Below are positions 11,971 through 43,772 of a stretch of DNA of 64,000 bases, in pieces. Positions within the stretch are counted from its first letter, which is position 1, and each line of letters starts with the position of its first letter. The notes below the pieces were generated by a model. That model had not been told where the DNA came from and did no database searches. It was given only the letters and a program-made list of their open reading frames with translations. The DNA is from Dehalococcoidia bacterium (GTDB lineage: Bacteria; Chloroflexota; Dehalococcoidia; Lucifugimonadales; JAGWBF01), in NCBI GenBank assembly GCA_965261965.1, contig OZ253489.1, positions 3,365,131 through 3,429,130 on the forward strand. The letters are read 5' to 3'. The position numbers and the translations under genes were made by a program.

Positions 11971-13743
11971 ATGAAGCAGCATCAACCCTTGACGCCGGCG
12001 GCGCTCTATGCGCGGGTGTCCAGCGACCGGCAGGACGTGGACCTCTCGGTCGCAGCCCAGCTGAGGGCGCTCCGGGACTACGCCAAAGCCAACGGCTACG
12101 TCGTGGCCCGCGAGTACGTCGACGAGGCCGAGAGCGGCCGTGTGGCGGATAGGCCCCAGTTCCGGGAGATGATCGAGGAGGGCGGCCAGCCGAAGGCGCC
12201 CTTCCAGGTCATCCTGGTCTGGAAGTTCTCCCGCTTCACCCGCAAGCGCGAACACGCAGTCGCCTTCAAGGCCATGCTCCGGCGCAAGGGCGTCCGGGTG
12301 GTGTCCATCACCGAGCACGCCGACGACTCGCCCACCGGCAAGCTCATGGAGGCCATCATCGAGAGCGTGGACGAGTTCTACAGCGAGAACTTGGCCCAGG
12401 AGGTTACGCGGGGGATGCGGGAGGCTGCGTCCCGCGGCTTCTTCCTCGGCCCGAAGGCCCCCTTCGGCTACAAGCGGGTCAAGGTCGCCGACGGGGCGAA
12501 GGAGCGTCCCACCCTGGAGGTTGACCCGGACACCGCCCCCATCGTGCGGGAGATGTTCGAGAGTTCCCTACGGGGCAACGGCCTGAAGGAGATATGCCAG
12601 GAGCTGAACGGCCGGGGCGTCACCAATAGGGGAAACCGCTGGTACAAGGGCGGCCTCCACTACCTGCTGACCAACGAGGCCTACACCGGCGCCGCCGTCT
12701 GGGGCCGGACCACCAAGGGAGAGCAGGCCGCCGACCCCGTGCGGGTGGAAGGGGCCTGGCCCGCGCTGGTGTCCAAGGAGATGTTCGAGGCCGTCCGTCG
12801 GGGCATGAAGGAGCGGGCGCCGGTGGTGCAGCGGCCGGGACGGGTGGGCAGCAAGTTCCTGCTGAGCGGGCTGCTGCGCTGCGGGGTGTGCGGCAAGCCC
12901 TACGCCGGCCAGGGAGCCAAGAGCGGTCAGTTCGCCTACTACATCTGCGGCACCCTGTACCGGGAGGGGGCCGGGGCCTGCACGGCCCGCTACCTGAACG
13001 CGCCAAGGGTGGAGGAGTTCATCGTCCGGAAGGTCAGGGACCGCATCCTGACCGACGAGACCGTCACCGAACTGGTGACCTTGGTGGCCGAGGAGATTGA
13101 CGCAATGGCCGGGGAGTTGGGTGGCAGGCTGAAGGCGATCGACGCAGAGCTTACCGATGTGGGGAGCAGGCTGGAGCGGCTGTACGAGGCCCTGGAGACG
13201 AAGCAGCTGACCATAGAGGCGTTGTCGCCCCGCATCCTGTCCCTGCGCTCCCGCCAGGACCAGCTGTCGGCGGCGCGGGAGGAGGCCGCGAATCAGTTGG
13301 AGCAGCGGCGGGTGGAGTTGCCCACGACGGCGGAGATCAGGGGGTACGTCGCCGACTTCCGCACGTTCCTGCAAGAGGGGACGTTCCCGGAGCGGAAGGC
13401 CCTCATCCGTAACTTCGTGAAGGGCATCGAGATCTCGGGAGACGAGGTCGTGCTCACGTACACCATCCCCATGCCGTCGGACGGGGTGACCAGTGAGGCG
13501 GCCTCGGTTCTCGATTTCGTCCAGTCCGGCCCACCATCGGGTAAAGTAGGTAGAACAGACCCGTTCAGGGCCACCTTTTCGGCTGACCTCCCAGGTATCA
13601 AGCTGTCGTCTGGCATGGGGACGGTGTATCTGAGAAGAGCGTCGCCGGGCACGACGATGATCTCCTTGACGAAGGACTTGATGAATGCCCTGCGCTCGGT
13701 CAACTCGCTCTCGTTGAGGAAGTCCTTCATGTCCTTGGCGTAG
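11971..13743 (+). CDS. Large serine recombinase LSR1 (reads through the att-like site into the antisense of LSR2)
   Basis: YARVSS catalytic Ser, WKFSRFTR, recombinase domain, CGVCG...YYIC...C zinc ribbon, coiled coil. Recombinase-like sequence ends near VLDFVQSGPP (~13535). Confidence 0.93.
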   Translation: MKQHQPLTPAALYARVSSDRQDVDLSVAAQLRALRDYAKANGYVVAREYVDEAESGRVADRPQFREMIEEGGQPKAPFQVILVWKFSRFTRKREHAVAFKAMLRRKGVRVVSITEHADDSPTGKLMEAIIESVDEFYSENLAQEVTRGMREAASRGFFLGPKAPFGYKRVKVADGAKERPTLEVDPDTAPIVREMFESSLRGNGLKEICQELNGRGVTNRGNRWYKGGLHYLLTNEAYTGAAVWGRTTKGEQAADPVRVEGAWPALVSKEMFEAVRRGMKERAPVVQRPGRVGSKFLLSGLLRCGVCGKPYAGQGAKSGQFAYYICGTLYREGAGACTARYLNAPRVEEFIVRKVRDRILTDETVTELVTLVAEEIDAMAGELGGRLKAIDAELTDVGSRLERLYEALETKQLTIEALSPRILSLRSRQDQLSAAREEAANQLEQRRVELPTTAEIRGYVADFRTFLQEGTFPERKALIRNFVKGIEISGDEVVLTYTIPMPSDGVTSEAASVLDFVQSGPPSGKVGRTDPFRATFSADLPGIKLSSGMGTVYLRRASPGTTMISLTKDLMNALRSVNSLSLRKSFMSLA

Positions 13744-15113
13744 GCGGCAATCGTGTTTACGTTGTCCAGTACCTTCCGGCGCTGGGCGAGGTCCGCCCTA
13801 GCCTGCTCAGCGAAGTACTCAAGCCGCTCTTGCCGATCCCGATGCTCTCTGATGCGGTCCGAGGCGTCGGCCATGGCGGTATCGGTCGTCTCGATGTGGC
13901 GCCAGATGCGCCCCAGTTTCTTCTTCACGTCCGCTAGCTCATCCTCGATGGCCCGAAGACTCTTGCGCTGCTCTCGGGTCACGTCGTCCATCTCCTCGGC
14001 CACCACCTTCACGAGTTCCTGGATGTTGCCCTTCGTGAGGACGTTGGAGCGGATCTTGGCGACGACCAGTTCCTCGAATCGGCGGGCGTTAAGCGTCGGA
14101 GTTTTGCAGGCGTCCTTGCCGAAATTGATGTTCGACTGACAGACGTAGTAGGAATACTGGCCGCTCTTGGCGAACCGGCCGGTAAGCGGCATCTTGCACG
14201 CCTCACACTTGACTAGGCCGCTGAGCAGGTAGGAGCTTCCGACTCTGCGGGGGTGGCTGAACTTGGGTGCGCGGGAGCTCAGGCACTTGCCAACGAGTTG
14301 GAATTGGGCCTTGGTGACGATGGCGGGGAACGCCTTCTCCACCCGCACTGGGTCAGCGTTGTCCTTGGCGTTGGCGCCCCAGAGCAATGTGCCCGTGTAC
14401 GCCTCGTTGGTAAGGATGTTATGGACGCTGGTCCTAGCCCAGAGCTTTCCCCTGGGACTGGCGATGCCCTCATTGTTGAGGGTGCGGATGATTTCGAGCG
14501 TCCCATTACCGGCTTCGGCCATGTCGAACATGCGCCTGACGATGGAGGACGCATCGGGATTGATCTCCAGGGTGGGTCTCTTCTTGGGACCGTCCTGCAC
14601 CATGACCCGGTTGTAGCCGAAGGGGGCGTGGCTGGAAACCCAGAAGCCTCTCGATGCGGATTCCCGCATCCCTCTCGTGACCTCCTGGGCGAGATTCTCG
14701 CTGTAGAACTCGTCCACGCTCTCGATGATGGCCTCCATGAGCTTGCCGGTGGGTGTGTCGTCGGCGTGCTCGGTGATGGAGACGACGCGAACGCCCTTGC
14801 GCCGGAGCATGGACTTGAAGGCGACGGCGTGCTCGCGCTTGCGGGTGAACCTGGAGAACTTCCAGACGAGGATTTCCTTGAAGGGGGCAGTCGTCCTAGA
14901 AGCCTCGTCGATCATCTTGCGGAACTGCGGCCTGTCGGCGATACGGCCGCTCTCGGCCTCGTCGATGAACTCACGGGCGACCAGGTAGCCGTTCTTCTCG
15001 GCGTAGTCCCTGAGCGCCCTGAGCTGGGCGGCAACGGACAGGTCCACGTCCTGCCTGTCGCTGGAGACCCTGGCGTAGAGGGCCGCTGGCGTGTAGTCGT
15101 ATCGTTCAATCAT
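13293..15113 (-). CDS. Large serine recombinase LSR2 (reads through the att-like site into the antisense of LSR1)
   Basis: MIERYDYTPAALYARVSS start coupled (ATGA) to the RHH stop; same domains as LSR1; near-identical to LSR3. Confidence 0.93.
   Translation of the reverse strand: MIERYDYTPAALYARVSSDRQDVDLSVAAQLRALRDYAEKNGYLVAREFIDEAESGRIADRPQFRKMIDEASRTTAPFKEILVWKFSRFTRKREHAVAFKSMLRRKGVRVVSITEHADDTPTGKLMEAIIESVDEFYSENLAQEVTRGMRESASRGFWVSSHAPFGYNRVMVQDGPKKRPTLEINPDASSIVRRMFDMAEAGNGTLEIIRTLNNEGIASPRGKLWARTSVHNILTNEAYTGTLLWGANAKDNADPVRVEKAFPAIVTKAQFQLVGKCLSSRAPKFSHPRRVGSSYLLSGLVKCEACKMPLTGRFAKSGQYSYYVCQSNINFGKDACKTPTLNARRFEELVVAKIRSNVLTKGNIQELVKVVAEEMDDVTREQRKSLRAIEDELADVKKKLGRIWRHIETTDTAMADASDRIREHRDRQERLEYFAEQARADLAQRRKVLDNVNTIAAYAKDMKDFLNESELTERRAFIKSFVKEIIVVPGDALLRYTVPMPDDSLIPGRSAEKVALNGSVLPTLPDGGPDWTKSRTEAASLVTPSDGMGMVYVSTTSSPEISMPFTKLRMRAFRSGNVPSCRNVRKSATYPLISAVVGNSTRRCSN
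13507..13556. other. 50-bp attP-like site shared by the 3' ends of LSR1 and LSR2
   Basis: GTTCT-N19-CC-N19-AGAAC with inner symmetry GGC|CC|ACC; each 24-bp arm is the 3' coding sequence of one recombinase. Confidence 0.7.
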
Positions 15114-15328
15114 CGGTTCCTCCTGCTTGTCTCTTCCTGTTCGGTCTGGCGTGAGCGCCGCATCTGCATCCGTTCCTGTCTGCGCCGCTCCCTCTCCTCC
15201 AGGTAGAGGCGGAACGCCTCGCGCAGAAGCTCGCTCACGGTACGGCCCTCCTCCTCGACCACCTGCCTCAGCTGCTCGTCCATCTCCGGTGGCAGGGAGA
15301 AGGTGATGACCCTTCTTTTCCTCGGCAT
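15110..15328 (-). CDS. Ribbon-helix-helix (CopG/MetJ-like) regulator
   Basis: VITFSLPPEMDEQLRQVVEEEGRTVSELLREAF pattern; translationally coupled to LSR2. Confidence 0.8.
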   Translation of the reverse strand: MPRKRRVITFSLPPEMDEQLRQVVEEEGRTVSELLREAFRLYLEERERRRQERMQMRRSRQTEQEETSRRNR

Positions 15329-15558
15329 GCCTTTTGCCTTTCATGGTCATACTTAGTCTTACCCTTATCATGGACGACCCGGCCTGCCGTTGTCAAGGTT
15401 CTTCTGGCGCAGGCTCCACCACACTTCCCCGCAGAAGACCTCGGCGGGCCTCCTTCCAGAAGTCCAAGTGTTACAACATCGTGGGGACGGTGCGAGGATC
15501 GGGCATAGCCCCCTGCAAGGGGACTCCGGGGGGATTGCCTGACGAGGCTAACCCTTGG

Positions 15559-15595
15559 AAAAAGTAGAGAGGCTGGCGGCCGCCAGCCTCTCTAC
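15559..15595 (-). terminator. Rho-independent terminator: perfect 32-bp palindrome followed by T5 on the minus strand
   Basis: GTAGAGAGGCTGGCGGCCGCCAGCCTCTCTAC (15564-15595) then TTTTT; downstream of the HEPN gene. Confidence 0.8.
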
Positions 15596-15642
15596 CCGCA
15601 TGAATTCCCATTCAGCCGTGAAGACTGCGACTACCCAAGACG

Positions 15643-16296
15643 TCACTTGTTGGCCTTAAGCCACCCTAGGTAGGCCTGATGGAGCTCTAGTAGAAACCGC
15701 CTCAAGTTCCCTAGCGCGTCCTCACAGAATGGTCGGGTCAATTCCAAGTTCGGTCTCCCGCCCTGGGTAGAGACGATCTGCTTCGCCTTAGCGAAATCAG
15801 TGACGTGTCCTTCGAGAGGAAGGTCCCCTCCTTCGTGCATAATCGTGTTCCTGATTTCTCGGTATTTGGTGATCTCTTGCCACTCTGCGGTTTCCGCAGG
15901 GAACGGTACGCCAAGCTTCTGGAGGTATGTTTTGGCACGGTCTGTGGGGGAAGAAGAACCAAGGTCCCTTACTGAGAAAGGGCTGCCACATTTCCGTTGC
16001 GCGCTCCGACAAATCCGCATCAACTGATTCTCGAACAAAGCAAAGGAAGCCGAAAAGAACGAATTCATTAAGATGCCCCTGAACTCTAAGCGTTCATGGT
16101 ATTCATCCGAGTGGAACTCGTAGAACTCGTCGCGCGCGTCTTCGTCATCTATTTGCTGAGCTTGTTGTTCTATAGTCTGTTCCCAATCTCGCAAAGTATC
16201 TTCCAAATGCGGTTCTACCAGGTCCAAGAACCGACTGTGGAGTTCCCATCTGTGAGAGATTAGAAACCGCTCTCCCTCGTCCCAACCTATGAGCAT
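15643..16296 (-). CDS. HEPN-superfamily protein (putative RNase)
   Basis: Helical protein with FALFENQLMRIC and REIRNTIMHEGG (R-x4-H). Confidence 0.65.
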   Translation of the reverse strand: MLIGWDEGERFLISHRWELHSRFLDLVEPHLEDTLRDWEQTIEQQAQQIDDEDARDEFYEFHSDEYHERLEFRGILMNSFFSASFALFENQLMRICRSAQRKCGSPFSVRDLGSSSPTDRAKTYLQKLGVPFPAETAEWQEITKYREIRNTIMHEGGDLPLEGHVTDFAKAKQIVSTQGGRPNLELTRPFCEDALGNLRRFLLELHQAYLGWLKANK

Positions 16297-16455
16297 GACA
16301 ACCGTACCTCCACATTAGGCTCTGGTGCCAGATTCCTTGGACCAGTGCCATCCTCGGTGCAACAATCCAGTCGCCCAAGCTCTTCCTTCTTTAAGAAAGA
16401 TCAATAGGGCACGGGTATCGAACAAGTTGACACAGGGCGTGGCTGCCCCATTGTG

Positions 16456-17136
16456 TCAAGTCAGAGGCCCAATCCCGTTCATATCAAAGAAGAGATGGGT
16501 GAGACGAATCGCCTGGAACGGTGAAGATCGCGGGTGATTCGATGCAAACACGGTGTCCAGCCATCCAATCGGATTAGCGAGTATCAACGCGTGTGCTGAT
16601 CCCATGCTTGGAGCCCTTGCGACCTGACGGTTCACGCGCCGGAGTACCGCGTTGGGAGCGCCACGGACGACGTAGCCTATTATTGCTCCGCTTTGGGCCT
16701 TGGCTCCGTAGTATCCCCGGACAAACCTGTCGATGCCACAGACGACGTAGAGACGGGCCAGGTCATCTGGCGCAAGTCGCTTACATTCAATGCTAAGGTA
16801 GGCATCTTCCGTAAGTAGGTCCCATGAGACCACCATGTCGATGCGGGGTGCATGGGCGGGGTCTTCATGGCCTTCTAACATTTCATCCGAAGGTTCCACA
16901 TGCTGGTACCGAGGTACGAGGGCCATGTTTCGCTCACGCTGGATTTCCTTCATGCATGCTACCAAGCGAACGGTGTAGTGGTCCTCGTGATCGCCGACCC
17001 GCCTGAATCCGCCCACGCTCCATTGCTCAAAGCCGTCCACAACAAGCTGAAGGACTGCCTTTTCAATCTCGGGGGATATTTCGCGGGCAAGAGAAGCCGG
17101 CGAACCAAAAGCGGAATCCTGCAAGTCCGGAGTCAT
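16456..17136 (-). CDS. Putative PD-(D/E)xK endonuclease coupled to the methyltransferase
   Basis: PRIDMVV...LSIECKRL motif; GIDRFV.G.Y; overlaps the MTase stop by 4 nt. Confidence 0.65.
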   Translation of the reverse strand: MTPDLQDSAFGSPASLAREISPEIEKAVLQLVVDGFEQWSVGGFRRVGDHEDHYTVRLVACMKEIQRERNMALVPRYQHVEPSDEMLEGHEDPAHAPRIDMVVSWDLLTEDAYLSIECKRLAPDDLARLYVVCGIDRFVRGYYGAKAQSGAIIGYVVRGAPNAVLRRVNRQVARAPSMGSAHALILANPIGWLDTVFASNHPRSSPFQAIRLTHLFFDMNGIGPLT

Positions 17137-20105
17137 GAGGTATGCTCCGCTGTTTCGTTGCTATCACGAGAAAGCGTTCGGAGCAACTGGGCAATAGTCT
17201 CGTCGGCATCGTTGTACGCGGCCGACCTTGTCCAAAACCGTCGTTCAGCAGGTTTCACTATATGAATTGCCTCAGCTTCATACACTTTGATATTCCTTCG
17301 GAAATATAGACTCTGCGCATGTTCTTCGGTTGCAACTCGTTCCAGTCTCGCCAAGAGACTATCTAGCTCTGGCTCAGACGCTATATCCGGTTCTCGCCCC
17401 TGTAACCCCCTTGGTGCGAGATGAAACGACACTGCCCGATAGGGGGGCGTTCCTTGGTAGACAATTGGCGCCAACGCTCTACTTCCGCCGGTCGTGTTCT
17501 CGAAGACCTCTGCGTAGGCTTGGGCATATAGAGTCAGCTCTTCGGCCAAGGGCGCCTCGAAAGCACTCGCCCGTAAACCGCGGTAATGTCGATCCATCGC
17601 TGTATTGAAGAAGTCCTGGATTGTCTGCTGCTCAGATGAAGTCACGCCATACGAGCGATATACAAGTTCATCGAGTTCTGGGAGCCTATTCCAGTCGCCA
17701 CTAATTTCCTGTATCTGATCAACTAGGGCTACTATGCTTTGCAAAAGGTCTGTGTCTTCCACGGGGATGGCACACGGGAACTTTGCGTATTCTGTCAATC
17801 TGACAACATCACGCTCAACCCCCCATGTGCTAGCGGTCAAGAAATGGTAGTAGCGAGCGAGCGAAGAGTTATTGTAGGCACATGCAATCTTCAGATAGTC
17901 TGCATCGTCGGATGGACCTGCTATACCGATGATGCCATCCTTAAATACCGCATCATCTGGCAGGAAGACAGAAGCCAATACTCCGCCTCTTATGGCCCCA
18001 CCTCTGATCAAGACGTGCGGACCCCGGTAGATACTACGATTACGCGGTCGATGAAACACCTCTTGACCGATTCGATCCTCTTGGTTCGACGAAACATGAA
18101 AGGGTCTTACAGCATTAACCGGGACGTAATGCATCGCCGCTAGTTCCGGGGCGGGATTCTCATCTCCCCCATTGACTGTGACGCCTTCACGCATCAACCA
18201 GCCACGGCGTTCGACTACTTCATCCAGCGTGGGGAAACGCTCGCTGAGATCATCGATCAACGCGAGATCACGGGGACTGCCCCATAAGGCCACCTTCCAG
18301 ATGTAAGGATGGCTGGCAACCTGCCGGCGTGAGAAGCGCCTCACTTCATCGCCAAATACTACAATCCCTGCTAGGCCCTCAGACAATGGAGATGGATGAG
18401 GGTTCAGGTACGTCAACTCGTTACGTCCGCTCTTGTTACCTGAAGAACTCTGACAAAAGATCGCGACCATCGGTGCAACGGCTTCGCGAAAGAGGGAGCG
18501 TCGGAAAGCCGAGAAATCGACCACCTGTGTTACTTCATTGGCTATGAAGAATTGACGTCGGAATTCCCTGTTGGGGCCGCTTTGATTGAACAGCACACCT
18601 TTGCTGGGGGCCAAGAGGCATACGCGACCTTCATCAGCAAGTAATGTAGGCGCCCGCCACAGGAAGGCCTGCGCGATTTGCTTGTCTCCAATTGTGTGTC
18701 CATTTCTTCGGACATAGTCAGCCGCCAATCTTGTCAGACTGCTCCGCCAAGGTGGATTCCCGACTATGATGTCATAGCGCCGCTCGTTAAACGGAGCCTC
18801 CATGTCGAAAAAATCGTTCACGAACAGATTAGTGCCCTTTAGCGTCGGGAAGCGTACTGTTTCCCAGATGCTCTTAGGTTCGAGGAATTCCAAGAGCGCT
18901 AAGTAGCAACTGAAAGCTGCCACTTGGATCGCCTCCTCACTCAAGTCCACACCATTGATAGATCCTGTCAAGAGGTCACGCAGTTCCTCGAAACTGAGGT
19001 TCTTACCACCACGGGCATGACGATGAAGCGTTACCAACCGGCGATATGCCTCTACAAGGAAGATTCCCGAGCCGCACGCCGGATCTAGAATCCTGACGTT
19101 TCGCGGTTCGGTCTCGAAAGGGAGTACCTCGTTGAGCACGAAATCGACAATTCCAGGAGGAGTATAGTAGGCACTTGTGTTACGCCGGTCCTCATCGAGG
19201 AACGTTTCATAGATGGCGCTGATCAATTCAATCGGAATGTACTTGAAGTCGTAAGCCCAGAAGTACATCTGACCAGAGGTTACCTCTTCACCATCGAGAA
19301 AGCGTCCAAGACGTTGGAGATGCTGTGGCTTGACCTGGTCCCGCTCCAGGTCATTAATAGGAAACAGATCGCCGTTGAAGCGGCGGGCCAATTCATCAAA
19401 CAGTTGATAGGTTTCGATCCACGAACCCTTCAGTAGAGCATGGAAGGTGAGGCCGCTGACAAATCGACCAAAGTAGTCTTCGTTGATGACTCCTCGGTCT
19501 TCCAGGTAGCGAACGAAGATCGACCTGCCCAGCAGACTGTTCGCCACCGACTCGGACAATCCATCATCAATCAGGTGGCGTCGCACATGCCTGAGGTTTT
19601 CGAGCAAGCGGTTGTCGACTCGTTGCCCCCGGTTGAAGTCTCCTTGTTGTGTCCGGACAAAGCGCCCCGATACGATTTCCCTTCGTCGGTACTCGGACAG
19701 CTCTCGTCTAAGCTCCAGAACATTTGTAACCTGCTGAACCGCCTGCTTAAGCAAGGTACTGCCCTCGCCCATTAGCCGGCCAGAGTCACGCTGGGGTGGT
19801 GCAAAGCAATTGTAGACTCGCACCTCTTGCGGCAGGACGGCGATCAGCAGCGGGGCGCGATTGTGATTCCACAGAGAGCGATGGAGGTGCCACAGGTAGT
19901 CGTCATTGACGGTCTGGAGTTCCTTAAAGTAGACAACCGGGATGTTCCCATGGAAATAGGCGGCGTCCATCTGAAGTTTGTCACGGACTTCCTGCCAAAC
20001 GTAGGCGCGTCCATCCCCGACGTCTGGTGTATCAACAGTCACCAAACCCTTGTCGTCGAGGTATTCAAGGGCATCGAGGACGTTTGTCAATGCGCTCCCG
20101 ATCAC
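17133..20105 (-). CDS. Large N6-adenine DNA methyltransferase (Eco57I/type IIG-like architecture, with target-recognition region)
   Basis: YYTP, ILDPACGSGIFL (motif I), IVGNPPW (motif IV), YDFKYIPIELISAIYE. Confidence 0.9.
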   Translation of the reverse strand: MIGSALTNVLDALEYLDDKGLVTVDTPDVGDGRAYVWQEVRDKLQMDAAYFHGNIPVVYFKELQTVNDDYLWHLHRSLWNHNRAPLLIAVLPQEVRVYNCFAPPQRDSGRLMGEGSTLLKQAVQQVTNVLELRRELSEYRRREIVSGRFVRTQQGDFNRGQRVDNRLLENLRHVRRHLIDDGLSESVANSLLGRSIFVRYLEDRGVINEDYFGRFVSGLTFHALLKGSWIETYQLFDELARRFNGDLFPINDLERDQVKPQHLQRLGRFLDGEEVTSGQMYFWAYDFKYIPIELISAIYETFLDEDRRNTSAYYTPPGIVDFVLNEVLPFETEPRNVRILDPACGSGIFLVEAYRRLVTLHRHARGGKNLSFEELRDLLTGSINGVDLSEEAIQVAAFSCYLALLEFLEPKSIWETVRFPTLKGTNLFVNDFFDMEAPFNERRYDIIVGNPPWRSSLTRLAADYVRRNGHTIGDKQIAQAFLWRAPTLLADEGRVCLLAPSKGVLFNQSGPNREFRRQFFIANEVTQVVDFSAFRRSLFREAVAPMVAIFCQSSSGNKSGRNELTYLNPHPSPLSEGLAGIVVFGDEVRRFSRRQVASHPYIWKVALWGSPRDLALIDDLSERFPTLDEVVERRGWLMREGVTVNGGDENPAPELAAMHYVPVNAVRPFHVSSNQEDRIGQEVFHRPRNRSIYRGPHVLIRGGAIRGGVLASVFLPDDAVFKDGIIGIAGPSDDADYLKIACAYNNSSLARYYHFLTASTWGVERDVVRLTEYAKFPCAIPVEDTDLLQSIVALVDQIQEISGDWNRLPELDELVYRSYGVTSSEQQTIQDFFNTAMDRHYRGLRASAFEAPLAEELTLYAQAYAEVFENTTGGSRALAPIVYQGTPPYRAVSFHLAPRGLQGREPDIASEPELDSLLARLERVATEEHAQSLYFRRNIKVYEAEAIHIVKPAERRFWTRSAAYNDADETIAQLLRTLSRDSNETAEHTS

Positions 20106-20602
20106 GGGAACACCCCCACTGAGCCGATTGCTTGAACACTTGGACTGACGCCGTCCTGGGGACCTGAAGCGACCTGTTCCTCGATTTCAGCTAACAGGTC
20201 AGCCAAAGGAAAGCGCAAGACATATTGCCGGGCAAGAGGGTCCAGGAGTTCTTCGTTCGACCTCCTGATAAGAATTCGGTGCCCGTCGGTGACGACCTCA
20301 AGTTCAGTGAGTGGCGCAGGTTCTTCCACTAAGTCGGATAGGCTTAGGAGTGCCTGACGGATCTTCTGCAGGGACAAGCCAGCCTGACGTAGGCGAAGGA
20401 TGAGCTTGAGCTGCACCACGTCCAGCAGTGTGTATAGCCGCCTACTACCGCTGCCCTGAGCCGGACGCCCATGGGGGCGTGCTAGTGCGGGGTCATCCCA
20501 GTATCCCAATCTGCGCTGTGTTAACCCAACGATCTTCTGCACCTCGCCCGAGGTGAACAGACCGGGCAGTTGGGTTGACGGTGTTGCAGCCACGGTAGAC
20601 AT
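20102..20602 (-). CDS. MerR-family HTH regulator
   Basis: FTSGEVQKIVGLTQRRLGYW...GSGSRRLYTLLDVVQLKLILRLRQAGLSLQKIR; coupled to the MTase start. Confidence 0.8.
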   Translation of the reverse strand: MSTVAATPSTQLPGLFTSGEVQKIVGLTQRRLGYWDDPALARPHGRPAQGSGSRRLYTLLDVVQLKLILRLRQAGLSLQKIRQALLSLSDLVEEPAPLTELEVVTDGHRILIRRSNEELLDPLARQYVLRFPLADLLAEIEEQVASGPQDGVSPSVQAIGSVGVFP

Positions 20603-20711
20603 CTTGTCATTCAAAGTACAAGAAACAGTGACTCGTGTCAATGTCGCGTCGTATCTTGCCATGGATGGAGGATCCTCCGAGCAGATGAAACCAGGTGAGG
20701 ACAGGCATCCC

Positions 20712-22289
20712 CTATGATCTGGTAGATAGCACCTCGCCGTTCAGAGCCGTCTCCTCGGCGTTCCTGCCGTGTATGAAGCTATCGTCGGGCATGGGAATGG
20801 TGTAGCGCAACAGAGCACTGCTGGGCATGACGACGATCTCCTTGACGAAGGACTGGATGAAGGCTCTGCGCTCGGTCGGCTCGCTCTCGTCAAGGAAGTC
20901 CCTCAACTCCTGGGCATATGCCGTAATCGTGTTCACGTCGTCCAGTGCCTTCCTGCGCTGGGCGAGCATCGCCCTGGCATCTTCCGCCGCATCCTCCAAG
21001 CGTTCCTGCCGCTCCCGGAGCTCCCTGATGCGGTCCGAGGCCTCGGCCATAACGGTGTCGGTCATCGCGATGTGGCGCCAGATGCGGCCCAGCTGCCTCT
21101 TGACGTCCTCAAGTTCATCCTCGATGGTCTTCAGCCTTTTGCGCTGCTCTCGGGCCACACCGCCCATCTCCTCGTCGACGACCTTCACCAGGTCTTGGAT
21201 GCTACCCTCGGTGAGGATGTCGGAGCGAATCTTGGCAACGACCAATTCCTCGAAGCGGCGGGCGTTGAGCGTGGGAGTATCGCAGGCGTCCTTGCCGAGC
21301 TTGATGTTCGACTGGCAGATGTAGTAGGAATACTGGCCGCTCTTGGCGAACCGGCCGGTAAGCGGCATCTTGCACGCCTCACACTTGACCAGGCCGCTGA
21401 GCAGGTAGGAGCTTCCGACCCTTCGGGGGTGGCTGAACTTGGGCGCCCGGGAGCTCAGATGCCCTCCGACGCGGCGGAACTGGGCCTTGGTGACGATGGC
21501 GGGGAACGCCTTCTCCACCCGCACTGGGTCAGCGTTGTCCTTGGCGTTGATTCCCCAGACCAGGGTGCCCGTGTACGCCTCGTTGGTAAGGATGTTGTGG
21601 ACGCTGGTCCTGGCCCAGAGCTTCCCCCTGGGGCTGGAGATGCCTTCGCTGTTGAGGGTGCGGATGATTTCGAGCGTCCCATCTCCGGCCTCGGCCATGT
21701 CGAACATGCGCCTGACGATGCGGGACGCTTCGGGGTCGATCTCCAGGGTGGGTCTCTTCTTGGGACCGTCCTGCACCATGACCCGGTTGTAGCCGTAGGG
21801 GGCGTGGCTGGAAACCCAGAAGCCTCTCGATGCGGATTCCCGCATCCCCCTCGTGACCTCTTGGGCGAGATTCTCGCTGTAGAACTCGTCCACGCTCTCG
21901 ATGATGGCCTCAAGGAGCTTGCCCGTCGGGGTGTCGTCAGCGTGCTCGGTGATGGAGACGACGCGAACGCCCTTGCGCCGGAGCATGGACTTGAAGGCGA
22001 TGGCGTGTTCGCGTTTGCGGGTGAACCTGGAGAACTTCCAGACCAGAATCTCCCTAAAGGGAGCCTCGGACTTGGTGGCCTCGTCGATCATCTTGCGGAA
22101 CTGCGGCCTGTCGGCTATACGGCCGCTCTCAGCCTCGTCCACGTACTCGCGGACGACCATGTAGTCGTTCTTGCGGGCGTGGTCTCGGAGCGCCCTGAGC
22201 TGGGCGGCCACCGACAGGTCCACGTCCTGCCTGTCGCTGGAGACCCTAGCGTAGAGGGCCGCTGGCGTGTAGTCGCGTCGTTCATCCAT
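20712..22289 (-). CDS. Large serine recombinase LSR3 (close paralog of LSR2)
   Basis: YARVSS, CEACK...YYIC...C zinc ribbon; long stretches of DNA identical to 13560-15110. Confidence 0.93.
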   Translation of the reverse strand: MDERRDYTPAALYARVSSDRQDVDLSVAAQLRALRDHARKNDYMVVREYVDEAESGRIADRPQFRKMIDEATKSEAPFREILVWKFSRFTRKREHAIAFKSMLRRKGVRVVSITEHADDTPTGKLLEAIIESVDEFYSENLAQEVTRGMRESASRGFWVSSHAPYGYNRVMVQDGPKKRPTLEIDPEASRIVRRMFDMAEAGDGTLEIIRTLNSEGISSPRGKLWARTSVHNILTNEAYTGTLVWGINAKDNADPVRVEKAFPAIVTKAQFRRVGGHLSSRAPKFSHPRRVGSSYLLSGLVKCEACKMPLTGRFAKSGQYSYYICQSNIKLGKDACDTPTLNARRFEELVVAKIRSDILTEGSIQDLVKVVDEEMGGVAREQRKRLKTIEDELEDVKRQLGRIWRHIAMTDTVMAEASDRIRELRERQERLEDAAEDARAMLAQRRKALDDVNTITAYAQELRDFLDESEPTERRAFIQSFVKEIVVMPSSALLRYTIPMPDDSFIHGRNAEETALNGEVLSTRS

Positions 22290-22324
22290 TCGTCTACCCT
22301 TTTTCTCTCCGGGACCGCACTCTT

Positions 22325-22582
22325 TCACTCAGGCTGGAGGCCGTCAGGTTCTGGAGGCGAATTCACCATCCCTCCTCCTACGCGGCCGCCGCCATCGGTG
22401 AGTGAGCCAACCCCGTGCTTTCGCATGTAGGAGCGGATGGCGACCCTTGCCCAGATGCGCAGGCCCTTGCGGATGAGCCTCCGCTGCTCCGGCGTGTACG
22501 ACACCTCCTGGCTGTCCGGGGAGGCTTCGGGAGGCAGCTCGTCGGGCCTCTTTCGTCTCTTCTTACCTTCGGTATCTTTCAT
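22325..22582 (-). CDS. Small basic protein directly upstream of LSR3 (candidate directionality factor)
   Basis: MKDTEGKK...TPEQRRLIRKGLRIWARVAIRSY; positional counterpart at 60824-61060 shares the MKDT.GK start. Confidence 0.55.
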   Translation of the reverse strand: MKDTEGKKRRKRPDELPPEASPDSQEVSYTPEQRRLIRKGLRIWARVAIRSYMRKHGVGSLTDGGGRVGGGMVNSPPEPDGLQPE

Positions 22583-22593
22583 GATCGTAGTCG

Positions 22594-22736
22594 CAGCGGC
22601 GGTTCGTGGGCCGCTGGCCTCTCGTTGCAGTTGTGCGGCAGGGCCGCCCGGCGCCGACGGAATGGGCGAGCGCCGGGTGGCCTCCGTGTCGTCTGATGCC
22701 CCGCCTTGCCGCCGTTGCGCCTGCGCGCGGCGGGGC
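22594..22736. other. Conserved non-coding triple stem-loop element, copy A
   Basis: Stems at 22594-22616, 22643-22681 and 22698-22736; homolog at 61073-61213. Confidence 0.7.
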
Positions 22737-22743
22737 GTTCCGG

Positions 22744-23061
22744 TCAGTCCTTGAAGAAGGTCATCTGGAAGCCCTCGCCGATGAGGATCTCCAGGCCGCC
22801 GGGCAACCGGCTTGCGAAGCGGAAGATCGAGTGCATCGCTCCCCCGCACGGCTCGACGCCCTTGCGCCACCTGAGCAGCTGCTTGGGGTCCACGCCGAGG
22901 GCCTTGGCGAAGCCGCGCCAGCTGAGACCGCTGGCCTCCTTGAGGCGTTCGAGGCGCTGACCGAAGTCCTCCGGCAGGACACCGCTCTGCATGGGCTGGG
23001 CGCCTTTCTCTCCAGTGGTGTGAAGCCCGTCCAAACGGGACGAAACGTTAGTGTTGGTCAT
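22744..23061 (-). CDS. XRE-family HTH protein
   Basis: FGQRLERLKEASGLSWRGFAKALGVDPKQLLRWRKG; paralog at 61220-61549. Confidence 0.8.
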   Translation of the reverse strand: MTNTNVSSRLDGLHTTGEKGAQPMQSGVLPEDFGQRLERLKEASGLSWRGFAKALGVDPKQLLRWRKGVEPCGGAMHSIFRFASRLPGGLEILIGEGFQMTFFKD

Positions 23062-23329
23062 GTCTATCCTCCATCGTGAAAAGCTGGTTGAAGTCGTCTA
23101 CGCCGAGGACCTTTTGCATCCGGCGGCGGATGCGTCCGGAGGGCGAGCGCTCCCCGTTGACCAGCATCGACATGTACCCCGGGCTGACCCCGGTCTCCCT
23201 GGCGAGCCAATTCTGGGAGCGGTTCAGCGTGGTGAGCCGCTTCCAGAGGGCCGCCGTGTCGAGCCGGACAACGTTCCGTCCTGCGCGCCTCCGGTGGCCT
23301 TTCTTTTTGTGAATATTTTCCGAACTCAT
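23048..23329 (-). CDS. XRE-family HTH protein
   Basis: SQNWLARETGVSPGYMSMLVNGERSPS; paralog at 61536-61820. Confidence 0.8.
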   Translation of the reverse strand: MSSENIHKKKGHRRRAGRNVVRLDTAALWKRLTTLNRSQNWLARETGVSPGYMSMLVNGERSPSGRIRRRMQKVLGVDDFNQLFTMEDRHDQH

Positions 23330-23349
23330 GGCGTTCCGTTTCCAATCGT

Positions 23350-25002
23350 TCATTGAGGCGGCAGGGCCTGGGGCGATTCCCAGTCGGTGGGCGCGCGCCA
23401 GGCGCGTCCCAGCGGCCCCAGGGCGTCTATGGCCTCCCGATGGGAGATCCACAGGGGCACTGTCTCGCCCGCCGCCCTCATCTCCTCCCGCGCCACGCGC
23501 AGGAAGTGGGTTGCCGCGATGTCGTCGTCGAATACGACCAGGACGGCGGGCCGGACGCCGTGGTCGTCGGTGGGCCTGTGCGATGAGAAGTAGCGCAGAT
23601 AGGGGGCGAGTCGGTCGGACATGGTGGAGGGCCGCACGGCCCTTCGCTCCCACTCCAGGAAGAAGGGCCAGCGTGTGTCGCCCTTGGCGAGGACGCCGAA
23701 GGCGTCGGGGTTGACGGCGCGCATCCCGCCGTCGTGCCGGAAGTGGCGGGAGGCCCTTCTCGGCGGGTCGAGCTGGGCGACCTCCCACCCCAGGAGGGGG
23801 GCCTGCACCGCCAGCGCGGCCAGGAATCCGTGGACGGCGGAGGTGTGCTCGGCGTTCCTCAGCAGCTGCCGCGTCCTCCTGCCGGAGAGGTTGCGCCACT
23901 CCAGGGGGGTCTCGGCGTCTTCGAGGGCGACGCTCCACCGTCTCTTCGCCACGCCCACGGACGTGCGGTCCCTACGGGCCAGGTGTGTCAGTCCCCGGTC
24001 GGTGAGGACGATGCGTCCGCCCGCGTCGCGGGGGCGGCTCACGAGGCCGAAGCCTTCGAGGGGGTTGACGAGCTGGGAGGCCCTTTGGGGCGAGACGCCC
24101 ATGAGCCCGGCCAGCTCCTGGAGAGCGACCCAGGGCCAGTCCGAGACCAGGTCGAGGGCGCGCTTCTCGGCGGACTTGAGAATGACGGGCAGCATATGGT
24201 CGGACATGTCCGACGCCGCCCACCTGTCGGGAAGGTCGGCGGGGAGGTCGGCCCGCTCCGGTTCAGGCTCCCGCGGCAGCTCACTCCCAGGGATCGCCCG
24301 GTCGAGCTCGTAGCGCAGGTCGATGGCGGCGGAGACCTTGACGGGGCTCCATATCCGGTCGCCCGCTCCGGCCAGGACCGCCTCGCGTTCGAGGGCGAAC
24401 AGGGCCGGCACGTCGGTGGTCGAGAGGAGCCTGCGGGCGTGCCTGAGACGCACGTCGTCGGCCATGAGGATGAGGAGGGTTCCGGGGAGCGGCCAGTCGC
24501 GCAGCCGCCAGAGCCGCTTGGCGAAGCCCGACCGGTCGGCGGTGAGTCCCTGCCTGATGATCCCGACGGTCCTGCCGTCCGGCAGCGTCACGGCGGCGTC
24601 CATCGGCATGGCCCGGTACCAGCGGAACCGGATGGGGTAGGCGACGTTGGAGAGGGCGGAGGCGACGTGGTAGACGGAGGCGAGCGGGTCGAGCCGGTCC
24701 ATCAGGATGCGCCGCCACTGGGCGGAGACGGGATGGGAGCGCACCAGCTCGTCGAGGGCGACGCCCTCCTCTCCGGCGAGCCTGCGCAGCCCTGCGGCGG
24801 TGAGATGGAACCTCCGCGCGGGGGGAAGCGGGTCTACGGCGTGGGGCACGGAGGCGCAGAACCCGCCGGACTCCAGGCTCGCTATGGCCTCGTAGACGGC
24901 GCCCCTCGACCAGCCGCAGACGGCGACCATCTCCAGCCGGTCGAGGAAGGGCATTGACGCCAGGGCGCGGAGCAGGTCGGCCTCACATCCTGCGGGTTTC
25001 AT
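23350..25002 (-). CDS. Replication-relaxation family protein, internally duplicated (putative relaxase)
   Basis: Two HTH-led halves; second half VNPDAFG...FFLEWERRA; coupled to the upstream T4CP stop. Confidence 0.72.
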   Translation of the reverse strand: MKPAGCEADLLRALASMPFLDRLEMVAVCGWSRGAVYEAIASLESGGFCASVPHAVDPLPPARRFHLTAAGLRRLAGEEGVALDELVRSHPVSAQWRRILMDRLDPLASVYHVASALSNVAYPIRFRWYRAMPMDAAVTLPDGRTVGIIRQGLTADRSGFAKRLWRLRDWPLPGTLLILMADDVRLRHARRLLSTTDVPALFALEREAVLAGAGDRIWSPVKVSAAIDLRYELDRAIPGSELPREPEPERADLPADLPDRWAASDMSDHMLPVILKSAEKRALDLVSDWPWVALQELAGLMGVSPQRASQLVNPLEGFGLVSRPRDAGGRIVLTDRGLTHLARRDRTSVGVAKRRWSVALEDAETPLEWRNLSGRRTRQLLRNAEHTSAVHGFLAALAVQAPLLGWEVAQLDPPRRASRHFRHDGGMRAVNPDAFGVLAKGDTRWPFFLEWERRAVRPSTMSDRLAPYLRYFSSHRPTDDHGVRPAVLVVFDDDIAATHFLRVAREEMRAAGETVPLWISHREAIDALGPLGRAWRAPTDWESPQALPPQ

Positions 25003-27599
25003 TCCACGGCCTCCTCTTCCTCGTCAGCGGCTTCGCCCGCTCCGTCCCCTCCGGCGCCCGCGGCGTTCGGTCTCCGTTTGCTGGTCTGCTTCCTCCGCTC
25101 CGGGTCCGGCTCAGCCGCCCGCTTGTCCGCCTGCCGGGCGGTTTCGATGTCCTCGACGCCCTTGCGGTAGTCGTCCACCTTGCGGTGGCCGTCGGCGTCG
25201 GCGTAGTCCGCCTGCCGGGCCGAGACGGTGTAGGCGGAGGCAGCCTCGCGGATGCGTGCGGCGGTCGCCGGGTCTCCCTCCTCGCGCTTGCGCACCATCA
25301 TCGAGAAGGCGGGCATCCGCTCCTTGCCCACGGTGGCGCGGACGTAGCAGTGGTGGACGGGCAGCGACGTGATGTCGTCCTCGGTTACCCGCTCCTTGCC
25401 CAGCTCCCAGACCAAGTGGCGGGCGTCGGACCCGGACACCTGGAAGACGGCGAGGCAGCCCACGTTGGCGAGCAGAGTGTCCCGCATGGTGCGGGAGAGG
25501 TCGTCCAGCTTGGCCAGGCTCTGGGTGGCGAGGATGAAGGAGGCCCCGAACTTGCCGAGCTCGGAGAGCATGGACTCGTAGTCCACGCCGGGCATCGACT
25601 GCATCTCGTCCACCACCAGCGCGCCGCGCCGCTTCTCCAACGGCAGGCTCCCCTGCTCCCGGATCACGGCGTCCACCAGGTTGAGCAGGGACGCGCCCAC
25701 CAGGGCGGCCACGTCCCTGCCCACGGTCCCCTGGGAGGTGGAGACCAGCAGGACGCCGCCGTCCAGGATGGTGCGGCGCATGTCGATGGTGGAGCGGCGC
25801 TGGCCGAGGATGGCGCGCGCCCGCTTGGAGGAGGCGTAGTAGGAGAGGCGGGTCTGGACGGGGGCGAGGGCCTCGGCCTTGTACTGGGCGTGCCACCTGC
25901 CGAAGTCCCTGGCCCACCACTCCAGGAGGTAGGGGTCGGAGACCTTCTTCAGCACGTCCTTGCGGAAGGGGTCGTCGGAGAGGAGCTTCAGCCCGTCGAG
26001 GATGGTGTATTGCTGCTCCGCCTCCACCTGCTCGTTGGCCTCGTGGAGGGTCTTGACGGTCTGTTCGAGGATGGACTGCATCCTCGGCCCCCACTGCTCC
26101 CAGAGGCCCTTGGCCACCCTGACCACCGAGTCGGCGGTGCGGTCCCGGTCGGCGAAGACGCGGGTGTCCAGCAGGTTGATGCCGGGGGAGCGGGACTCGT
26201 CGGACAGGTCGATGAGCCGCACCCGGTCGATGAGGGACGCGGGCACGTGTTCGAGGATGCCGGCCGCCAGGTCGGTGTGGGGGTCGATGACGACGATGGC
26301 GTCCGGGTCCCTGCCCTCGGCCTTCTCCCGCAGCTTGTGCGTGACGAGGTGGTGCATCAGCGTGGACTTGCCCATGCGGGTGCGGGCGACGTAGAGGTGG
26401 TGACGCCGGAGCAGGTCCTCGGGGAAGCGGATCTCCCGCTTGGCTCCTGCGGTGGTGTCCCCCACCAGCGCGCCTCCCCGGACCCCCTTGGCGGACGGGC
26501 TGAGCGTCCGTGCGCCGGACCGCTCCACCAGGGGGGTCTCGTCGCCCGCGCCGGGCGGGTGCCACAGGCAGGCGACCTCGCGGACGCCCAGCACACTGCG
26601 CTTTCCGAACAGGCCGGGACCTGCCGGGTGGAGCATGGATGGGTCGGTCGCGGTTGGCCGGACTTTGCCGACCTTGAAGCGCGCCCCGGCGGGGTTGTCG
26701 TAGTGCCGGTAGGCGGCGGCGACCGGGCCGAGAAGCTCCCCCGCCCGCTGCGGCATCGTGTCCGGGGGCAGGATCGCCGTCACCTGAAGCTCGGCGTCGA
26801 AGGCGATGCGGGAGACCTTCGCGCCTATCAGGATGGGGTCCTCAACGCGGTTGCGGGCCTTCTTCCAGCGGTGCCATGCCCAGCCGCCGACGGCCAGCCC
26901 CAGGGCCGTGCCCGCCCCTAGGAGCGCCGCCTTCCATATCTCGCCGTCCTGCACCCACAGGTAGCCCTTCAGGGCCGCAAGCGCGCCCAGGCCGAGGACG
27001 GCCATCGTGATGCCGTCCATCTGCAGGGGCTTGGTCTGGAACGTGTAGGCGGGCTCCCTGGGCTCCATGCCGGGCCGCTTGTGGGCCTTGTCCATGTGGG
27101 CCTGGGACCAGTCGGGGCCGAGGGAGCGCAGCAGCAAACGGGCCACGACGCGCTCTCCCTCGTAGAGGGCAGAGAGCGCGCCCATGAGGGCGATGAGGGG
27201 GTCGGAGCCGGGGTCGAGCAGGTCGTCGTCGCGGAAGGTGCGCAGGGGGACGTACTCGGGGCCGTCGGCCCGCAGGGTGATAGACCACGCCTGCTCGCCC
27301 TCTTCGAGCCTGAGCGGATCGTCGTCGGGGCCAACCTGCTGGATGCGGGCCTGGGGGTAGTGGGCCGAGAGCTGGCCGCGCACCACCTGGGCGTCGAGGC
27401 AGCGGGCCATGAGCGTCACGCCGTCCATGTCCCCGGCCAGCTCCAGGGAGAAGGGTTCGGGGACGGCGATGGACTGGAGCAGGTTCTCGACGCCCAGCAG
27501 GGTGCGCTCGCCGGTCCTTGGCGGCGTCACCGCCAGCAGGACCGGACCCTTCTTGCCCTCGTCGTTTCCAAACAGGATGTTTTTCGGGTTCAGCTTCAA
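24999..27599 (-). CDS. VirD4/TraD/TrwB-like type IV coupling protein
   Basis: Two TM segments, Walker A ARTRMGKST, Walker B ALVVDEMQ, ELGKFG...LATQS motif; GAAAGGAG RBS with TTG start. Confidence 0.85.
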   Translation of the reverse strand: MKLNPKNILFGNDEGKKGPVLLAVTPPRTGERTLLGVENLLQSIAVPEPFSLELAGDMDGVTLMARCLDAQVVRGQLSAHYPQARIQQVGPDDDPLRLEEGEQAWSITLRADGPEYVPLRTFRDDDLLDPGSDPLIALMGALSALYEGERVVARLLLRSLGPDWSQAHMDKAHKRPGMEPREPAYTFQTKPLQMDGITMAVLGLGALAALKGYLWVQDGEIWKAALLGAGTALGLAVGGWAWHRWKKARNRVEDPILIGAKVSRIAFDAELQVTAILPPDTMPQRAGELLGPVAAAYRHYDNPAGARFKVGKVRPTATDPSMLHPAGPGLFGKRSVLGVREVACLWHPPGAGDETPLVERSGARTLSPSAKGVRGGALVGDTTAGAKREIRFPEDLLRRHHLYVARTRMGKSTLMHHLVTHKLREKAEGRDPDAIVVIDPHTDLAAGILEHVPASLIDRVRLIDLSDESRSPGINLLDTRVFADRDRTADSVVRVAKGLWEQWGPRMQSILEQTVKTLHEANEQVEAEQQYTILDGLKLLSDDPFRKDVLKKVSDPYLLEWWARDFGRWHAQYKAEALAPVQTRLSYYASSKRARAILGQRRSTIDMRRTILDGGVLLVSTSQGTVGRDVAALVGASLLNLVDAVIREQGSLPLEKRRGALVVDEMQSMPGVDYESMLSELGKFGASFILATQSLAKLDDLSRTMRDTLLANVGCLAVFQVSGSDARHLVWELGKERVTEDDITSLPVHHCYVRATVGKERMPAFSMMVRKREEGDPATAARIREAASAYTVSARQADYADADGHRKVDDYRKGVEDIETARQADKRAAEPDPERRKQTSKRRPNAAGAGGDGAGEAADEEEEAVE

Positions 27600-27629
27600 T
27601 GCTCCACTCCTTTCTCTAACGGACGCTCT

Positions 27630-35802: not shown

Positions 35803-35848
35803 CTACTAGCCTGTCGAAACTCAAGCTACTGGCCTGTCGAAACTCAAG
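35803..35848. repeat. 23-bp tandem duplication (1 mismatch)
   Basis: CTACTAGCCTGTCGAAACTCAAG / CTACTGGCCTGTCGAAACTCAAG. Confidence 0.9.
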
Positions 35849-35900
35849 CGAATCTCTCCCACAAAATGGGTAGTCATCCCGTCCCATTGTACCAAAACGT

Positions 35901-43748: not shown

Positions 43749-43772
43749 TTGCCTGACTAGTAGGGAGTACAG

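Follow-up and report, generated by a model that had tools for sequence, protein, structure and literature searches.

The window analysed here, a stretch of 64,000 nucleotides from contig OZ253489.1 of a Dehalococcoidia bacterium, carries two genes for large serine recombinases (LSRs), termed LSR1 and LSR2, which face each other on opposite strands and whose open reading frames (ORFs) overlap tail to tail by 451 bp. Within the overlap lies a 50-bp site, J1, composed of one arm from each recombinase gene, and a reciprocal site, J2, is found at the far end of a 31.7-kb element that includes LSR2 (Table 1). Each of the two sites is a hybrid of the same two parental attachment sites, and both parental sites, as well as both native ORFs, are restored when the halves of J1 and J2 are exchanged.

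Table 1. Coordinates in the window of the recombinase genes, the hybrid sites and the LSR2-bearing element (L-numbers denote related loci)
Feature	Position	Strand	Remarks
LSR1 ORF	11971..13743	+	590 amino acids (aa); large serine recombinase of the GPP polarity type
LSR1, family-conserved part	11971-13536	+	522 aa
LSR1, run-on	13537-13743	+	68 codons read from LSR2 antisense
LSR2 ORF	13293..15371	-	692 aa; large serine recombinase of the GGP polarity type
LSR2 gene from likely start	13293..15113	-	conserved part 15113-13527
LSR2, run-on	13526-13293	-	77 codons read from LSR1 antisense
J1, hybrid 50-bp site	13507..13556	+	LSR1 arm (left 24 nt), CC, reverse complement of LSR2 arm (right 24 nt)
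J1 landmarks	GTTCT 13507-13511; CC 13531-13532; AGAAC 13552-13556	+	from sequence reading
J2, reciprocal hybrid site	45203..45252	+	central CC 45227-45228; core GGCCCACCA 45224-45232
Displaced LSR1 native 3' end	45227..45283	+	...PPDLTKSRTFTLRFKLAV; stop TAG 45281-45283; right arm 24/24 identical to L081
Displaced LSR2 native 3' end	45172..45228	-	...GPEWTVGGTVFEMWLGAL; stop TGA 45174-45172; compare uninterrupted L068, L001, L033 and L073
LSR2-bearing integrative element	13533..45228	.	31,696 bp between crossover points; bracketed by the window's only two family-type sites
Ribbon-helix-helix (RHH) gene	15110..15328	-	72 aa; stop overlaps LSR2 start; RHH_1 gene in equivalent place in L082
LSR3	20712..22328	-	second recombinase within the element; 84% identical to LSR2; own stop after ...VLSTRS

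Two recombinase genes and their reciprocal hybrid sites

LSR1, LSR2 and LSR3 all contain the domains PF00239 (Resolvase), PF07508 (Recombinase) and PF13408 (Zn_ribbon_recom), and the peptide YARVSSDRQD near the N-terminus is unchanged across the three. The serine in this type of N-terminal motif is the catalytic residue. At the protein level, LSR1 shares no more than 55-56% identity with LSR2 and LSR3. The DNA encoding the catalytic domains of the three genes (11992-12442, 14642-15092 and 21818-22268) is 83-88% identical, a level of sequence agreement that suggests either gene conversion or strong constraint on a shared tetramer interface. The ATG at 15113, which overlaps the stop of the 72-aa RHH gene, is probably the real start of LSR2.

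The length of the ORF overlap, the layout GTTCT-N19-CC-N19-AGAAC and the peptides encoded by the two arms of J1 (VLDFVQSG of LSR1 on the left and, on the minus strand, VLPTLPDG of LSR2 on the right) had been reported in a preliminary description of this DNA, and are verified by reading the sequence. A 9-bp core, GGCCCACCA, occupies 13528-13536. The same description regarded J1 as one symmetric attP-like site, attP being the attachment site of the mobile element. This view does not hold, as J1 forms 10 of 25 self-complementary pairs, a value equalled by 11% of the 50-mers in the window, and the window has 13 occurrences of the motif pair GTTC-N36-44-GAAC, where 8.6 would be expected. Both statistics are no better than chance, and symmetry was therefore dropped as evidence for J1. 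The site is instead a hybrid of two sites, and its parents are more palindromic than J1 itself.

The partner site that the preliminary description had proposed to look for lies within the window itself (45203-45252). When all six frames are searched for the native tail peptides of these recombinases, a single place in the window is identified, near 45.2 kb, where the plus strand reads ...TVHSGPPDLTKSRTFTLRFKLAV and a stop, which is the native tail of LSR1-type genes, and the minus strand reads ...GGPEWTVGGTVFEMWLGAL and a stop, which is the native tail of the closest relatives of LSR2. The DNA of this site, J2, is GTACCACCTACCGTCCACTCAGGC CC ACCAGACTTGACGAAATCAAGAAC, in which the distal arm of the LSR2 element, in reverse complement, makes up the left 24 nt and the distal arm of the LSR1 site supplies the right 24 nt. 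The cores of J1 and J2 are identical and in direct orientation, with CC on the plus strand in both.

Because exchanging the halves of J1 and J2 around their shared core rebuilds both parental sites and both ORFs, the two are reciprocal hybrid junctions. The rebuilt LSR1 site (13507-13530 joined to 45227-45252) reads GTTCTCGATTTCGTCCAGTCCGGC CC ACCAGACTTGACGAAATCAAGAAC and has 20 of 25 palindromic pairs, which no 50-mer in the window reaches. It is identical at 49 of 50 positions, including 24 of 24 in the right arm, to the uninterrupted site behind an LSR1-like gene in L081. The rebuilt LSR2 site has 14 of 25 palindromic pairs (about 0.3% of the 50-mers in the window do as well) and agrees at 46 of 50 positions, with a fully matching left arm (24/24), with the uninterrupted site of L068. 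The rebuilt LSR1 ORF encodes 538 aa, the native length, and ends in GPPDLTKSRTFTLRFKLAV before its stop (tail written DLTKSRTFTLRFKLAV); the homologue P0147 is also 538 aa long, ends in ...GPPDLTKSRTFSLRFKLAI and shares 14 of 16 tail residues with rebuilt LSR1. For LSR2, with a native length of about 545 aa, the rebuilt tail is GGPEWTVGGTVFEMWLGAL (end EWTVGGTVFEMWLGAL), as compared with GGPMCTVGGTIFEMWLGAP in L068, a 94% relative. The crossover is placed 17 codons upstream of the native stop in both genes, and each parental site is a roughly 50-bp imperfect palindrome within the last 17-27 codons of its own recombinase gene. J2 and the rebuilt sites bear out two earlier proposals, namely that the last codons of each recombinase gene contain an attachment-site arm and that the junction originated by arm-to-arm recombination of two elements.

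A weight matrix trained only on arms from related loci in other genomes and scanned over the 64-kb window recovers exactly two sites, at 13531 (44.0 bits) and 45227 (49.5 bits), while the next best position scores -16.6 and the background is -99.6 +/- 18. Further copies of GGCCCACCA at 25911 and 61084 (minus strand) are attributed to chance, as their weight-matrix scores are nowhere near those of J1 and J2; the left arm of the copy at 25911 is loosely X-arm-like. Only three wobble positions in the arm are invariant (TCT, AAT and GGT), a sequence pattern that may weakly reflect constraint at the DNA level at the core.

The preliminary description also noted that LSR1 and LSR2 lack stops at their natural ends. 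The missing stops are nothing special: native stops do exist, displaced to J2, and antisense frames in these GC-rich genes are generally open, with antisense ORFs of 268 aa inside LSR1 and 317 aa inside LSR2; the LSR1 frame reopens at 13753 for 128 codons more. The run-on of each gene through the antisense of its partner follows from these two circumstances. In annotation, the long 'fused' ORFs are best regarded as native genes whose ends have been displaced, and not as novel forms of protein. For the encoded LSR2, an AlphaFold model has modest overall confidence (mean predicted local distance difference test score, pLDDT, of 64), with long helices at residues 361-447, C-terminal of the zinc-ribbon region, and its last strands at 482-496 and 511-515, whereas residues 523-606 have a pLDDT of about 25. 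A terminator scan between LSR1 and LSR2 found none. Since the swapped residues lie beyond the last predicted strands in a region of very low model confidence, and since the length of the run-on differs widely from homologue to homologue, the run-on tails probably arose as by-products rather than as a means of regulation, and the built-in switch for integrase stability or directionality that the preliminary description suggested is unlikely to be needed.

Recurrence in Dehalococcoidia and the spacing of the arms

Homologue sets of 120 proteins related to LSR3 and LSR2 and 120 related to LSR1 (240 in total) reveal a common conservation break. The proteins are conserved up to ...VLSTVxxGGP, ...VLSTVHVGPP or ...ASVLDFVQSGPP and then split abruptly into discrete tail classes; among the 120 LSR1 homologues the conserved end is ...ASVLDFVQSGPP, with divergence after it. 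The break corresponds to 13527-13536 in the window, where the plus strand encodes GPP and the minus strand GGP. Together with the weight-matrix match at 13531, this confirms the switch point and supports a crossover centre at or beside the CC at 13531-13532, where the preliminary description had put it. Short 'native' tails take the forms GGPxxTxLRTFRWEVxI, GGPxxTVGxTxFEMWLG.. and GPPxxTKSRTFxLxFxLxx, each before a stop. Other tail classes are the antisense of a tRNA gene (e.g., GGAGGTRTP...ALSQLSYSPT) and the antisense of another LSR gene, and the tails of LSR1 and LSR2 belong to the latter.

Two variations among the tails were also observed. In P0048, P0099 and other relatives with tails of the type 'GGPxxTELSLSQK...', an insert of about 190 nt ('SLSQK...AQ') separates 'TEL' from LRTFRW; the TxLRTFRWEV arm seems to be the target of a small element in these relatives. 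In L005, L018, L019 and L080, which have LSR1-like tails of the type 'GPPxxTRT..', TCGAAC often occurs at the 18-nt spacing typical of tRNA arms, with no tRNA gene called. Such TCGAAC arms behind GPP-type recombinases may be downstream halves of natural attB sites, the targets of integration, or relics.

A scan of one genome per species yielded at least 558 relatives, from which 80 loci were kept, all of them in metagenome-assembled genomes (MAGs) of Dehalococcoidia, many being closed chromosomes. A tRNA gene (Val, Met, Lys, Ala or Ile) is present on the opposite strand in 29 of these loci, with an overlap of 7-10 nt between its CCA end and the GGP codons. A convergent LSR is present in 17 of the 80, and in most of them the conserved ends overlap by about 10 nt, as in the window. 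Antisense-LSR tails are found in 51 of the 120 LSR1-like proteins and the native palindromic tail in only 5, so that J1-type junctions represent the commonest state of LSR1-like genes. Junctions of this type also lie within chromosomes of 2-4 Mb.

The identities of the two partners in a pair are poorly correlated (r = 0.28); for example, the first LSRs of L042 and L046 are 98% identical and their partners only 80%. On these sequence comparisons the pairings look independent. In L086, a 96% homologue of LSR1 faces a remnant of about 100 nt of a G-type LSR (6790-6930), and a full G-type gene is located 2.9 kb further on (9225-11354), indicating that tail-to-tail junctions can be old and can decay. 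A metagenome scan that used the core and the LSR1 distal arm as its query found a further J2-type junction in L083 and L084. The same scan returned L085, in which a tRNA-Glu gene is joined at ...GCGCC/ACCA to an LSR1-type distal arm, GACTTGACAAAATCAAGAAC; LSR1-type elements therefore also use tRNA 3' ends. As a source of the empty site, L082, a 93% identical sister, yielded none, as it is rearranged inside LSR2, and comparison by tblastx of the flanks of L081, L083 and L085 with the window gave GC-rich noise and no usable synteny.

An alignment of the 80 loci centred on this dinucleotide shows strong conservation of the recombinase-side arm, which reads GT[TA]CTGTCTACCGTCAA...TGGT followed by GG at the centre. 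The central dinucleotide corresponds to tRNA positions 71-72, and the element arm brings in the discriminator base and CCA, the core GGCCCACCA being identical to the acceptor end of the targeted tRNA genes together with ACCA. The tRNA arms have the form GCCnnnnnGGA[CT]-TCGAAC, in which GAAC ends 18 nt from the centre, whereas in all element-borne arms GAAC, or a degenerate form of it, ends 24 nt from the centre, a shift of 6 nt. Accordingly spaced, the LSR1-type arm GCCGGACTGGAC-GAAATC-AAGAAC resembles the tRNA-Ile arm GCCAGCCTGGAC-TCGAAC with a 6-nt spacer added. In characterized serine integrases, the second DNA-binding domain is positioned 5 bp (4 bp in SPbeta) nearer the centre on attB than on attP half-sites (PMC11722253). 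The 6-nt shift between tRNA arms and element arms matches this published spacing rule, and GAAC would then be the motif bound by the zinc-ribbon (second DNA-binding) domain. Spacing of the attP type is common to the four arms of J1 and J2.

The orientation of the core relative to the gene is inverted between the two types, such that LSR1 reads GPP and LSR2 reads GGP. Because these orientations are opposite, recombination between an LSR1-type and an LSR2-type element leaves the two genes tail to tail. The recombinase gene also differs in position, located at the end far from the tRNA in LSR1-type elements and at the near end in LSR2-type elements.

Origin of the junction and comparison with known systems

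J1 is very likely a recombinant junction of the attL/attR kind between two different attachment sites, probably created by insertion of the LSR2 element into the attachment site of LSR1. A circular LSR2 element would integrate at the intact site that ends LSR1, in a reaction presumably catalysed by LSR2, perhaps together with LSR1, through a conservative serine-recombinase crossover at the central CC. Such a crossover would carry both native tails and their stops to J2, leaving each ORF to continue into the antisense of its partner. Several points weigh against this account. The event is known from an assembled contig, and the block of identity is 9 nt, with the crossover put at CC by geometry only. 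The ends of the LSR1 element lie beyond the window, which contains no tRNA gene, and the flanks of J1 and J2 are not tied to one element. Furthermore, with four attP-spaced arms, a direct event would be an attP-by-attP reaction, while the canonical LSR model pairs only attP with attB (PMC11722253).

Stepwise accretion, the less likely alternative, needs no attP-by-attP reaction. Here the window would be part of a tRNA-anchored array consisting of the tRNA gene, an LSR1-type, an LSR2-type and a further LSR1-type element and the downstream flank, with J1 and J2 as the borders between neighbours. Each newcomer would integrate at the end junction of the resident, the DNA right of J2 and left of J1 would belong to different elements, and a tRNA gene outside the window would adjoin ACCA-GACTTGAC...AAGAAC on the left. 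This scheme fits every tail class, i.e., tRNA/G, tRNA/P (L085), G/G (the 'native' X tails), P/P (L081), P/G (J1) and G/P (J2, L083 and L084). It would also account for apparently intact sites inside megabase-scale chromosomes and for the array-like string of L086, with its LSR1-like gene, G-type LSR remnant and full G-type LSR, and tandem serine-recombinase islands at a transfer-messenger RNA (tmRNA) gene are documented in Dehalococcoides (PMC3146451). However, a search of the 64-kb window found no tRNA or tmRNA gene, and the 18.7 kb right of J2 contain no second plus-strand LSR1-type gene. Every step of accretion would still require a target with one attP-type arm, which is likewise non-canonical. 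The left half of J1 joined to the right half of J2 also restores an ORF and tail of native length, although this argues only weakly against accretion, given how conserved the arms are family-wide. On balance, the evidence leans slightly toward direct insertion.

The preliminary description had offered, as another explanation, the attP junction of a circle or of a composite element with an integrase at each end. In such a composite, formed when neighbouring elements excise together, J1 would be a working attP, with LSR1 on the left arm and LSR2 on the right, that integrates at a tRNA gene. Both arms of J1 are attP-type (25 + 25 bp), J1-type junctions are the commonest state of LSR1-like genes, and the similarity of the catalytic-domain DNA could allow mixed tetramers. 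In the window, however, the contig is linear and J1 and J2 lie 31.7 kb apart in direct orientation, equivalent junctions sit inside chromosomes of 2-4 Mb, and partner combinations are poorly correlated, some partners being decayed remnants. The circle thus finds no counterpart in the window, and a two-integrase attP is improbable. An assembly artefact, in which a chimeric contig was joined at a short shared repeat, is hardly credible. Although the source looks metagenome-assembled and the shared core is merely 9 bp, the junction recurs in the same register in at least 17 independent genomes, closed chromosomes included, its reciprocal lies on the same contig, and a second J2-type junction comes from a separate collection.

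A broader and more speculative proposal, which we rate as rather unlikely in its entirety, is that the polarity-inverted subfamilies of tRNA-end integrases routinely dock into each other by heterotypic attP-by-attP recombination, and that the resulting junction could act as a two-enzyme attP. One integrase dimer would occupy each site, synapsis would proceed through the near-identical catalytic domains, and the swap of C-termini would mark the docked state. If direct attP-by-attP recombination is what happened, the locus would represent a naturally occurring departure from the directionality rule that governs serine integrases.

In comparison with serine integrases that convert attP and attB to attL and attR, the enzymes described here share the three-domain architecture, imperfectly inverted arms totalling about 50 bp, the central dinucleotide and conservative crossover, as well as a short identical core at both junctions and an integrase gene beside one of them. 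The outer motif of the host arm is likewise nearer the centre, by 6 nt here and by 5 bp, or 4 bp in SPbeta, in the literature (PMC11722253). In contrast, both parental sites at this locus are attP-spaced and are embedded in the 3' coding ends of recombinase genes, and the 'host' site is the recombinase gene of another element, whereas the usual targets of the family are tRNA 3' ends. According to the Islander paper of 2014, tRNA genes were not among the known targets of serine integrases (PMC4383910), and Durrant et al. (2022) mention neither tRNA genes nor integrase genes as targets (PMC10083194).

A likeness in geometry exists to the ssrA-specific islands of Dehalococcoides with the serine recombinase DsiB (McMurdie et al., 2011; PMC3146451). 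These occur in the same bacterial class and feature a reverse-strand recombinase of about 540 aa adjoining a tRNA-like 3' end, in tandem arrays of islands with one short repeat in common. The corresponding arrangement, with a recombinase convergent with a tRNA 3' end, is found in 29 of the 80 relatives, though not in the window. The DsiB islands target the tmRNA gene, with a 20-bp repeat and insertion in the T-loop, whereas the targets here are ordinary tRNA genes or another recombinase gene and the 9-bp core is at acceptor positions 71-72. No small partner gene resembling DsiA turned up here, without a search aimed at DsiA, and the likeness is one of geometry.

An attP within the integrase's own gene is known for tyrosine recombinases, including phage Mx8, in which integration changes IntP to IntX (PMC4383910, citing Tojo et al., 1996), and the 'suicidal' integrases of the SSV type (PMC7253208). 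In those systems, as here, integration alters or splits the C-terminal coding region of the integrase and excision restores it, and a crossover inside the integrase ORF that changes the C-terminus is found for both LSR1 and LSR2. Unlike Mx8 and SSV, in which one tyrosine recombinase gene is altered, the event here affects two serine recombinase genes at once, which overlap tail to tail. Nested or accreted composites are also established, such as Tn1806 in ICESa2603-family elements, composite islands of staphylococcal cassette chromosomes (SCC) and phage-ICE tandems, ICE being an integrative and conjugative element (PMC12942858, PMC9585547, PMC13651849). As far as the portions of these sources consulted go, they resemble the present locus in that a site-specific element lies inside or beside another, the two can co-travel, and some are based on serine recombinases. 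Within the incomplete coverage of the literature search, no report turned up of two LSR genes meeting tail to tail at a common core of inverted polarity, nor of any target that is an attachment site embedded in the 3' end of another recombinase gene.

These observations describe serine integrases with sites in their own last codons and with tRNA 3' ends (Val, Met, Lys, Ala, Ile and Glu) as their usual targets, a class of target long thought to be the preserve of tyrosine integrases. The family offers dozens of natural attB, attP and hybrid sites with a clean 6-nt spacer, which are useful both in engineering and in deriving half-site rules. From the tail-to-tail junctions it can be seen how Dehalococcoidia stack or nest elements that carry defence, restriction and conjugation genes; about one in five of the sampled LSR2-type genes and two in five of the LSR1-type genes are joined in this way.

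The LSR2 element and its surroundings

The 31.7-kb element encodes, besides the RHH protein, LSR2 and LSR3, two unknown proteins, a type IIG restriction-modification-like protein, a MerR-like protein (20102-20662), a Replic_Relax protein and a TrwB/TraG-like coupling protein. These are accompanied by a 2409-aa leucine-rich repeat surface protein, a hybrid sensor kinase, a second Eco57I-like methylase and three further unknowns. This gene content is that of an integrative mobilisable or conjugative element. The RHH gene is a candidate regulator or directionality factor. LSR3 is homologous to LSR2 at its 3' end only until about 12 nt beyond GTTCT, and several homologues of its subgroup (P0001, P0002, P0004 and P0007) end in STRS or STRQ followed by a stop; the weight-matrix scan detected no family-type site at the LSR3 3' end (20712).

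To the left of J1, the DNA likewise has the appearance of a mobile element, with a Replic_Relax gene, an operon resembling a cyclic oligonucleotide-based anti-phage signalling system (CBASS), a helix-turn-helix (HTH)/M78 pair and a PIN gene, and then LSR1 at its end. The CBASS-like operon (6141-9717, minus strand) comprises genes for a ThiF/E1-like protein (6141-7691), a SMODS cyclase (7695-8726) and a patatin phospholipase (8806-9717). As the otherwise related L086 lacks this operon, the LSR1 element probably carries it as cargo.

Restriction genes occur at several places in the window. Type IIG methylase-nuclease genes of the Eco57I/MmeI-like kind are located at 17133-20105 (minus strand) and 39356-42082 (plus strand). 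A type I system lies beside a DDE transposase gene, with HsdR at 45310-48600 and HsdS at 50992-52509 (ranges 45310-52509 on the minus strand and 52592-54130 on the plus strand). The 2409-aa protein (28187-35416, minus strand) contains leucine-rich repeats and Calx-beta, cadherin-like and fn3 domains and is built on 72-nt repeats; a second array of 72-nt repeats, with seven units, spans 54856-55537.

Paralogous modules at 22748-25443 and 61230-63910, about 80% identical, each consist of a small ORF, a Replic_Relax gene and the start of a TrwB-like coupling protein gene, and both are positioned upstream of recombinase genes, LSR3 and LSR4 respectively. L082 is 95% identical to the module copy at 61-64 kb. 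LSR4, a fourth large serine recombinase (56910-58961, minus strand), is about 25% identical to LSR1-3 and runs on for about 147 codons past '...VSIG'. In L082, the tail of an LSR4-like gene of 537 aa (17561-19174) directly adjoins an LSR2-like gene that breaks off near codon 141. Elements of the LSR4 type may thus form junctions of their own, possibly inside other recombinase genes. At the left of the window, a 300-nt direct repeat, 91% identical between its copies at 2207-2506 and 5518-5817, brackets a low-GC piece of 3.3 kb that contains an ORF with a weak CoiA_N match just under the Pfam cut-off and may represent a further insertion or duplication.

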